Assembly (NCBI GenBank): GCA_045806965.1
Contig: JBJMIG010000059.1
Coordinates: 2,656-66,655 of the forward strand
DNA: 64,000 nucleotides
From: Labedaea sp.
GTDB taxonomy: Bacteria; Actinomycetota; Actinomycetes; Mycobacteriales; Pseudonocardiaceae
Direction of reading: 5' to 3'
In this document: piece by piece, positions 33,689-34,854 of the stretch
How the letters are laid out: the number at the start of each line of letters is the position of its first letter
Position numbering within the stretch: the stretch's first letter is position 1
Made by a program: the position numbers and the translations under genes
Notes under the pieces: model-generated
What the model was told of the DNA's origin: nothing
Seen by the model: only the letters and a program-made list of their open reading frames with translations
Databases searched by the model: none

Positions 33689-34854
33689 TCAGTAGCCGAC
33701 GTAACCGCCACCGCCGTGGATCGCCTTGATGCCCGGCACGTTGCCGAGCGAACCGTAGCGGCTGACCGAGTAGCGGACGCCGGCGATGATGTTGTCCACC
33801 GGGTTCCAGATGTCGTTGTGGCCGGGCAACTTGTGCGCGTTGAACGTGGAGTCGATGCACTGCATCAGGCCCTTGGACGGGTGACCGGCCGCCGCGTTGG
33901 AGTCCCACAGGTTGATCGCCTTGGGGTTGCCGCCGGACTCGTGCTGGATGATCTGCCAGATGTACTGGGCGTCGGCCTCGCTGACGTTGATCCCGTTCTG
34001 ACGCAGGATCTCGATCGCCTGCTTGATCCACTCCTGGACGTTGCCCGGCGGCGGGCCGCCGGTCGGGGGACCGCCGCTCGAGCCGAGGCCGCCACCTCCT
34101 CCGCCGCCGCCACCGGTGGGACCACCGCCACCACCGCCGGTCGGGCCGCCGCCCGCCGCACCGGCGCCGGTGCCGGTGCTGCCGTTGCCGCCGCTGCCCG
34201 GGGGCGGGCTGTCGGTGGTACCGGACGGCGCGGTCTGGCCGGGCGGTGTCGGCGTCCACTCGATCGGTGTGCCGGGTTGCGGGGTGAACGGCTGGGTGTT
34301 CGGGTCGGACATCGAGGAGAACGTGCTGGCCGGGCTGGCCGCGCCGGCCAGTGTCCCGGCCGCGGCGCTCAGCACGGCCTCGGTGCCGTCGAGGTGCTTG
34401 CGGATGTCCCCGGCGGCCTCGCCGCAGATTTCCCTGGTGTACCCGTCGAGCTGGGCCTGGTCGGCGTCCTTGTGGTTGCGGAGCCAGGTGTTGATCTCGG
34501 TGAGCGCCTGGTCGCAGCGGGTCTGGACATAGCTCTTGGCGCTGGTGAGGCCTCCGCCACCTTGTTGAGCGCACCGGCCGCCTGGGTCATCGCGCCGCCG
34601 ACGTCCGTGCCGGCCTTGCCGAATCGGTCCATGTAGGCGACGAACTGGTCCGCCGAGGTGCCCTCCCAGGCGGCGTCGAGGCCGCGGACCGCCTTGCCGA
34701 CCGCACCGGCGTTGGCGCTGGCGTTGGTGGCCGCGGTGGACAACCGGGCAGCCGCCGCCGCGACCGCTCCCGGGTCGGCGTTGTCCACCTTGCTCGCCTG
34801 AGCGGTCACCAGGTCGCCGCCCGCGTACCTGGCCAGGTCACCCGCCGCGCTCAC
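33689..34854 (-). pseudogene. WXG100-like N-terminal domain fused to a Pro/Gly-rich linker and a C-terminal lytic transglycosylase (SLT/GH23), interrupted by a 1-nt frameshift near 34548-34553
   Basis: Frame A runs from GTG 34854 and reads ...LDAAWEGTSADQFVAYMDRFGKAGTDVGGAMTQAAGALNKVAEA. It then degenerates into low-GC3 junk. Frame B becomes GC3-rich and protein-like from the same point (LTSAKSYVQTRCDQALTEINTWLRNHKDADQAQLDGY...) and ends in [31 protein letters not shown]. Confidence 0.6.

Follow-up and report, generated by a model that had tools for sequence, protein, structure and literature searches.

The 64,000-nucleotide stretch of Labedaea sp. DNA analysed here (contig JBJMIG010000059.1, positions 2,656 to 66,655 of the forward strand; below, the window) carries on its minus strand, at 33689-34854, a frame-broken local orthologue of a conserved Pseudonocardiaceae gene. 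The intact protein is ~385 amino acids (aa) long and consists of a PPE/WXG100-like targeting domain of ~175 aa, a flexible Gly/Pro tether of ~90 aa and a lytic transglycosylase domain of the GH23 (SLT) type. This WXG-SLT fusion is a widespread and already annotated family of the Pseudonocardiaceae, not a rarity. With moderate rather than high confidence, the window gene is best read as the local orthologue of a secreted cell-wall enzyme that would remodel the wall of its own producer rather than kill neighbouring cells, and the route of export would be a type VII secretion system (T7SS).

A preliminary description, made from the letters of the window, had described the region, if read as a single protein, as running from a WXG100-like hairpin to an SLT domain, and had predicted a type VII substrate carrying a peptidoglycan lytic transglycosylase. 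All of the domains are present. They do not lie in one open reading frame: the region is 1166 nucleotides (nt) long, which is not divisible by 3, and a -1 frame change is needed at ~34549. The substrate assignment likewise stands as regards its domains, its fold, the lack of a signal peptide, the linkage to EspG, PE-like and PPE-like genes and the presence of EccC and EccB in the genome, and falls short in that the gene is frame-broken.

Architecture of the WXG-SLT protein

Read in the direction of translation, the gene is made up as follows.

34549-34854, minus strand: first 102 codons, for helices 1 and 2, the WxG turn (AAWEGTS) and the beginning of helix 3 (WXG100 match)
34547-34551, minus strand: frame break (three-frame translation, protein and DNA alignments, and a Viterbi frame track based on G+C content at third codon positions, GC3)
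34337-34549, minus strand: remainder of the helical N-domain, now in the second frame and covering read-through residues ~103-173 (protein alignment, AlphaFold2 model of a homologue)
34052-34336, minus strand: linker, a conserved motif followed by a disordered Gly/Pro/Thr-rich spacer (sequence)
33692-34051, minus strand: SLT/GH23 domain with the E-S motif QHESGG, the stop codon lying at 33689-33691 (Pfam SLT)

The domain order across the region is thus a WXG100 hairpin, more helices, a Pro/Gly/Thr spacer and the SLT/GH23 domain. In the frame opened by GTG 34854, WXG100 is matched above its cut-off (PF06013, E 4e-9, 37.1 bits vs 27.3) together with the NCBIfam model WXG100_ESAT6 (E 3e-8), and the first 102 codons align without a gap to residues 1-102 of intact proteins. 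An SLT match, also above its cut-off, lies in the frame that closes at 33689 (PF01464, E 2.2e-12, 47 bits vs 21.3). Both residues of the E-S motif are invariant across 117 homologues, and QHESGGNP aligns with IESGGNP of MltE, a segment that holds the catalytic Glu of that enzyme. The SLT domain and the motif quoted for it in the preliminary description are confirmed, as is the spacer, which had been put at about 90 aa with long Gly runs and measures ~95 aa, is rich in Pro, Gly and Thr and contains Gly runs of 6 and 9.

The fold was modelled with AlphaFold2 (AF2) on P0001, an intact homologue 83% identical to the window read-through, from a 117-sequence alignment. At a mean predicted local distance difference test score (pLDDT) of 81, the model shows three regions. 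Residues 1-175 form a bundle with pLDDT >90, built of helices 13-24, 28-62, 66-127 and 133-172, and W63-x-G65 sits at the turn between the second and third of these; residues ~190-265 are disordered, with pLDDT <50 at 212-256; and residues 272-387 are the SLT domain. The WXG100-like hairpin that had been proposed from the letters is thus borne out both by the Pfam match and by a confidently predicted PPE/WXG-like N-domain. The best PDB matches of that N-domain are PPE41, PPE15 and PPE4, over ~160-170 residues (target-normalised template modelling score, TM, 0.63-0.69; probability 1.0; E-values, however, of at least 0.02); BAR-domain proteins are also among the fold matches. Relatives score above the cut-off for Hydro_N_hd (Pfam PF22905, 'hydrolase N-terminal helical domain'). 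For Pfam PPE (PF00823), the window protein reaches 14.5 bits against a cut-off of 26, and one of three distant homologues just passes at 27.1 bits. Because of the PPE41, PPE15 and PPE4 fold matches, and because Hydro_N_hd and, in one case, PPE pass in relatives, the model suggests that an extended, PPE-like form of the WXG domain describes the tag more aptly than a bare hairpin of 100 aa. The N-terminus MSAAGDLARYAGG lacks a Pro-Pro-Glu motif, hhalign gave no significant match between the N-domain and local PPE-like proteins, and no N-terminal hydrophobic signal peptide is visible on inspection of the sequence.

The helical domain is joined to the Gly-rich tether by a conserved linear motif, TFSxxPDPNTQPFTPxPGxPIEWxPTPP (window 34250-34336, minus strand; alignment residues 176-206), in which P192 and W200 are invariant across the 117 homologues. 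The motif might serve in docking or processing.

The frame break

The frame opened by GTG 34854 reads ...LDAAWEGTSADQFVAYMDRF...ALNKVAEA and then runs into an out-of-frame Arg/Pro/Ser-rich tail that stops at 34369. The frame closing at 33689 reads LTSAKSYVQTRCDQ..., followed by the Pro/Gly/Thr spacer and then SLT, and its earliest start codon is GTG 34375. Three-frame translation and alignments place the -1 frame change that a sensible protein requires between ...NKVAEA and LTSAKSYVQ.... Aligned as DNA, three intact relatives each have one base more than the window, which shows a single 1-nt gap inside the Ala102 codon; aligned as protein, the two pieces of the window meet on intact homologues with no gap between them; and the GC3-based Viterbi frame track changes frame at 34548/34549. 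Taken as assembled, the gene would yield a WXG protein truncated to 161 aa and an SLT part that has no export tag. Its product would therefore be inactive, unless the base was lost through an error of assembly.

That the copy is a genuine pseudogene, with a real one-base deletion and nothing functional produced, is a serious contender that falls just short of probable. The base is missing relative to all three intact relatives, and the break is absent from each of the four same-genus genomes sampled, of which three have an uninterrupted gene and one, G106, an in-frame intein-like insert. Further, the GC3 Viterbi frame scan finds only ~31-45 frameshift-like junctions across the 6-Mb genome, so that the assembly is not generally ridden with indels. 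Set against this, the codon-position GC bias to either side of the break is fully that of coding sequence, and neither stops nor indels occur beyond it, so that any inactivation would be very recent. The genome, moreover, is a draft of 106 contigs that is 85% complete, in which single consensus indels do occur. Exact-pattern scans of two public collections, one of metagenome contigs and one of genome contigs, found no second assembly of the break site. A programmed -1 ribosomal frameshift regulating the output of full-length enzyme, for which both frames are open over the junction and the shift needed has the right sign, can be dismissed because GCGGAGGCCTCACC contains no slippery heptamer and the break is common to no relative, every orthologue examined being coded in a single frame.

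Distribution and conservation of the family

With the 388-aa read-through, joined at the frame break, as query, more than 1200 homologues were retrieved, the best of them intact proteins of 380-390 aa with up to 83% identity. Matches that carry a source name come from Actinophytocola, Kibdelosporangium, Lentzea and Saccharothrix. The family profile is matched in 132 of 150 sampled Pseudonocardiaceae genomes, and among the matches listed for this sample ~60, from many genera, span the whole profile with no change of frame. Within the order, nearly all strong matches fall in Pseudonocardiaceae (19 of 32 genomes), with single full-length ones in two other families. The window's genome has one copy of the gene. 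Conservation is uneven along the protein, with a mean pairwise identity of 82% for the SLT domain vs 51% for the N-domain. A literature search found no paper characterising a WXG-SLT fusion. How often such fusions stand beside espG and PPE genes had been raised as a point to survey: the fusion is widespread in Pseudonocardiaceae, and the EspG linkage was seen in three loci examined.

The cassette and its promoter-like motifs

The WXG-SLT gene is the last of six genes in the order PE-like, DUF3558 lipoprotein, PPE-like, EspG, small partner and WXG-SLT. The remaining elements of the window cassette are these.

34851-35162, minus strand: small helical partner, ~100 aa, whose stop overlaps the GTG start of WXG-SLT (sequence, AF2)
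35194-35220, minus strand: promoter-like GGAACC-N16-CGTCC of the extracytoplasmic function (ECF) sigma type, lying ~30 nt upstream of the gene for the small partner (motif scan)
35357-36124, minus strand: EspG-family chaperone (Pfam ESX-1_EspG, E 4.5e-63, full length)
36140-37405, minus strand: PPE-like protein, 421 aa, with SWQG as its WxG and a long C-terminal stretch rich in Pro and Gly (PPE, E 1.3e-4, below cut-off)
37415-38053, minus strand: DUF3558 lipoprotein with lipobox LAVAGC (Pfam DUF3558, E 1.2e-23)
38046-38444, minus strand: PE-like protein, 132 aa, with C-terminal AYGYTDEE (Pfam PE, E 1.2e-4, 22.7 bits vs cut-off 22)
38511-38537, minus strand: second GGAACC-N16-CGTCC, upstream of the PE-like gene (motif scan)

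The same six genes stand in the same order beside purD in Actinophytocola algeriensis and Lentzea nigeriaca. EspG and the ~100-aa helical partner precede WXG-SLT in all three related loci examined, the partner directly so, and the position of the PPE-like gene is likewise conserved in relatives. The locus does not lie on an island of atypical composition.

The GTG start of WXG-SLT and the TGA stop of the partner overlap as GTGA, just as had been noted from the letters. The name then given to the partner, 'EspC-like', found no support in the sequence: neither Pfam nor NCBIfam matches it, no consistent Pfam match emerged among 25 homologues, and what can be said of it is that AF2 predicts an Esx-like helix-loop-helix hairpin. 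Its 63 homologues are all annotated 'hypothetical', and none has a Pfam domain; the only recurrent weak matches among the 25 are to unrelated coiled-coil families, and the PDB profile matches are coiled-coil artefacts.

Downstream of WXG-SLT, the preliminary description had noted an aminotransferase and no obvious immunity gene, and both observations hold. The next gene in the window encodes a class I/II aminotransferase (E 1e-59), as it does in Lentzea; in A. algeriensis, MarR and MFS genes come first and the aminotransferase after them. An immunity-like gene is absent downstream of WXG-SLT in the window and in the A. algeriensis and Lentzea loci.

The C-terminal sequence KAYG(Y/F)T(D/E)EE, a canonical YxxxD/E signal, is kept in the PE-like proteins of the window, L002 (4596-4994) and L004 (4512-4970). 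Since the PE-like protein has this signal and the SLT partner does not, the two putative substrate pairs of the cassette differ in their signals.

The two promoter-like sites of the window are two of its three occurrences of GGAAC-N16-18-CGTC. In the related loci, GGAAC(C/G)-N16-17-CGTC lies upstream of the small partner in L002, L004 and L006 and upstream of the PE-like gene in L002 and L004, and a motif conserved at both sites suggests two co-regulated sub-operons. Genome-wide, the loose form GGAACC-N15-17-CGTCC is not enriched (38 matches vs 34 in reversed-sequence controls); the count is uninformative, and only the positional conservation in four loci therefore carries weight. The neighbouring ECF sigma factor is of the SigE family, and its identification as SigM was rejected at 69 bits against a SigM equivalog cut-off of 190. 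Because the loose motif is not enriched and the adjacent sigma factor is not a SigM equivalog, 'ECF-type promoter' is the furthest label that the sites allow. A related GCAACC-N17-CGTCC is found at ~31140-31170 (minus strand), upstream of the SigE-family ECF sigma gene itself. Nearby, at 29206-31121 of the window, TetR is followed directly by purB; in L002 and L004 a second ECF sigma/anti-sigma-like pair stands between the two.

Proposed export and function

Core components of a T7SS are encoded in the genome, on contigs other than that of the window: EccC scores 958 bits, above the T7SS_EccC_a cut-off, and EccB 416 bits. There are two EccC-like ATPases (in G000, C15:11937-14969 and C16:35204-37762), one with the 958-bit score and the other more divergent, at 370 bits in an open frame of 1468 aa. 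EccB lies on contig C39, separate from both EccC-like genes.

Given a lytic transglycosylase that lacks a signal peptide, carries a WXG/PPE-like domain and sits in an EspG/PE/PPE cassette, type VII cargo is the simplest account. In the mechanism that we propose for intact members of the family, the WXG-SLT gene would be co-transcribed with the small partner from an ECF-sigma-type promoter. Partner and N-domain would then pair into a helical bundle like those of Esx and PE-PPE proteins, possibly held by the adjacent EspG. Export of the folded complex would fall to the type VII system whose EccC and EccB genes lie on other contigs, and once past the membrane the SLT domain, on its tether, would cut MurNAc-GlcNAc bonds. 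Such cutting would most likely serve local remodelling of the producer's wall, for example for the passage of other type VII cargo, for cell-cell contact or for development.

Several points weigh against this account of an exported enzyme that remodels its producer's wall. The window gene is frame-broken in the present assembly. The PPE-fold matches of the N-domain are weak, with Foldseek E-values of at least 0.02, and YxxxD/E was not found in homologue alignments of either the WXG-SLT protein or the small partner. The partner has no Pfam or NCBIfam match and no consistent Pfam match among its homologues; EsxA/EsxB/PE25-type hairpins are included in its top-ranked structures, all at non-significant E-values, and hhalign comparisons of it with PE-like proteins and with the WXG N-domain were not significant either. 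The literature searched gave no secretion or activity data for any family member. Finally, to our knowledge Pseudonocardiaceae have no mycolate outer membrane, and a secreted lytic transglycosylase could therefore equally reach neighbouring cells.

An unlikely alternative is that WXG-SLT is an interbacterial effector, a T7SS-exported lytic transglycosylase that degrades the exposed peptidoglycan of Gram-positive competitors. The preliminary description had left effector and self-remodelling factor side by side, and the evidence now favours the latter. In keeping with an effector, a T7SS-type helical N-domain joined to an enzymatic C-domain resembles the LXG-type toxins (PMC5555719), the SLT type is one that phages use from outside the cell, and for analogous hydrolases the authors of PMC13491425 leave both roles open. 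Polymorphic toxins, however, vary most in their C-domain, which is the most conserved part here; an immunity gene is absent downstream in three genera; the gene is single-copy and keeps a fixed chromosomal site between purD and the aminotransferase across genera; and the locus is not an island of atypical composition. Remodelling is preferred to a polymorphic toxin because the SLT domain is more conserved than the tag, because there is no immunity gene, and because the gene is single-copy at a fixed position.

It is very unlikely that the N-terminal helical domain is instead a module for oligomerisation or wall anchoring and that the enzyme leaves the cell by another route. Helical bundles are generic, BAR-domain proteins are among the fold matches and no YxxxD/E was found, all of which would suit such a module. 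Against it stand the WXG100 Pfam match above cut-off, the lack of a visible signal peptide and the strict linkage with EspG, PE-like and PPE-like genes. To these may be added the probable intein in the SLT domain of some orthologues. An intein must fold and splice ahead of export, which fits a folded-cargo pathway, not Sec.

Relation to described systems

The closest described analogues are operons of the SigM regulon of Mycobacterium abscessus. These 'orphan' ESX-4 substrate operons, for example Mab_1828-1832, encode PE, DUF3558, PPE, WXG100 and NlpC/P60 proteins (PMC13491425), and in M. smegmatis an NlpC/P60 protein of the SigM regulon is required in conjugation recipients (PMC13491425). The window cassette similarly combines PE-like, DUF3558 and PPE-like genes with a small, putatively WXG100-type protein and then a peptidoglycan hydrolase without a signal peptide, lies apart from the core genes of the T7SS and has ECF-type promoter-like sites in which GGAACC would be the -35 element. 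It differs in that its hydrolase is a GH23 domain fused to a WXG/PPE-like domain and not an NlpC/P60 peptidase, in that an EspG gene lies inside the cassette, and in that the host is without a mycolate outer membrane.

The N-domain model superposes on the PPE chains of M. tuberculosis PE25-PPE41-EspG5 and related complexes (PDB 4KXR, 4W4K, 5XFS, 6UUJ). As in those complexes, WxG stands at the hairpin turn, and a gene for a ~100-aa predicted hairpin partner and espG are adjacent. Unlike PPE proteins, the window protein lacks Pro-Pro-Glu, scores below the PPE cut-off and carries an enzyme as C-terminal cargo, and its partner is not recognisably PE and lacks YxxxD/E.

Enzymes that open peptidoglycan locally for secretion machines are familiar from other systems. 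VirB1 of type IV secretion, EtgA and IpgF of type III secretion, and FlgJ and SltF of flagella are small GH23-type enzymes encoded with the machine that they serve. In the diderm bacteria that have them, these enzymes leave through Sec or through the machine itself, and we know of none among them with a WXG/PPE-like tag. EssH, the dedicated wall hydrolase of the Staphylococcus aureus T7SSb, is a CHAP/amidase-type enzyme and belongs to another phylum and another T7SS subtype. Like WXG-SLT it is a peptidoglycan hydrolase tied to a T7SS, and it has been proposed to open the wall for cargo; it is described as a helper recruited to the machine, not as a WXG-tagged substrate (PMC13059805). LXG toxins of the Firmicutes T7SSb such as TelC (PMC5555719) share with WXG-SLT a long helical N-domain of the WXG superfamily, small helical partners and a C-terminal enzyme that acts on the envelope. 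They differ in having variable C-termini and adjacent immunity genes, whereas the WXG-SLT C-terminus is conserved and has no immunity gene.

A more specific proposal, possible if doubtful, is that the cassette is the T7SS's own wall-opening device in non-mycolate actinomycetes, in which the PPE-like tag and the partner, perhaps with EspG, would carry a lytic transglycosylase of the phage type through the T7SS, with an ECF sigma factor in control. If this is true, a wall-opening enzyme would be needed for the passage of the 421-aa PPE-like cargo or for contact-dependent processes such as conjugation and hyphal fusion, and WXG-SLT would be the Gram-positive actinobacterial counterpart of VirB1 and EtgA, itself a T7SS substrate.

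The passage of large type VII cargo over the thick actinobacterial wall is an unsettled question, and the roles of the mycobacterial 'orphan' PE/PPE/DUF3558/hydrolase operons are explicitly open (PMC13491425). The same gene grammar is found here in non-mycolate soil actinomycetes, with the hydrolase fused to its export tag and the cassette in a fixed, vertically inherited chromosomal position. Actinophytocola, Lentzea and Kibdelosporangium consequently offer simple, non-pathogenic models in which service to the secretion machine, cell-cell contact and antagonism can be told apart. The window copy adds little to this because it is frame-broken.

Phage kinship of the SLT domain and an insert in relatives

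The nearest counterpart of the SLT domain is the muralytic segment that tape-measure proteins of actinophages contain and use to pierce peptidoglycan (PHROG E 3e-45; BFVD 38-46% identity). In both sequence and fold its closest relatives are the tape-measure SLT domains of phrog_167 and phrog_4070, for example those of Propionibacterium phage B22 and Mycobacterium phage Cosmo. The phage domain is internal to a tail protein of at least 1000 aa, whereas here it is the C-terminal part of a T7SS-type protein encoded on the chromosome.

An in-frame insert of 322-365 aa stands at an identical site in the SLT domain of four orthologues, each from a different genus: one belongs to the same-genus genome G106, the others to three genomes of other genera. 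The insert-bearing loci are these.

L019:2979-4073: G106
L023, L024 and L025: genomes of other genera

The insert stands between ...NWD and SNA..., begins with C... and ends in ...GN. It shows Cys1, a TxxH block, two LAGLIDADG-like motifs, ...FLTGN and a terminal Asn before Ser+1. LAGLIDADG_3 is matched above its Pfam cut-off and is the only model matched, the insert being unmatched by the intein-specific profiles searched (NCBIfam, PDB sequences). From these motifs it is a probable full-size homing-endonuclease intein in a predicted secreted lytic transglycosylase. Inteins in actinophage tape-measure proteins have been reported only recently (bioRxiv 10.1101/2025.01.02.630785), and the SLT type is common to those proteins and the window family. 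The window copy is without the insert, and the equivalent site in it falls between D and S at ~33901/33902 on the minus strand.

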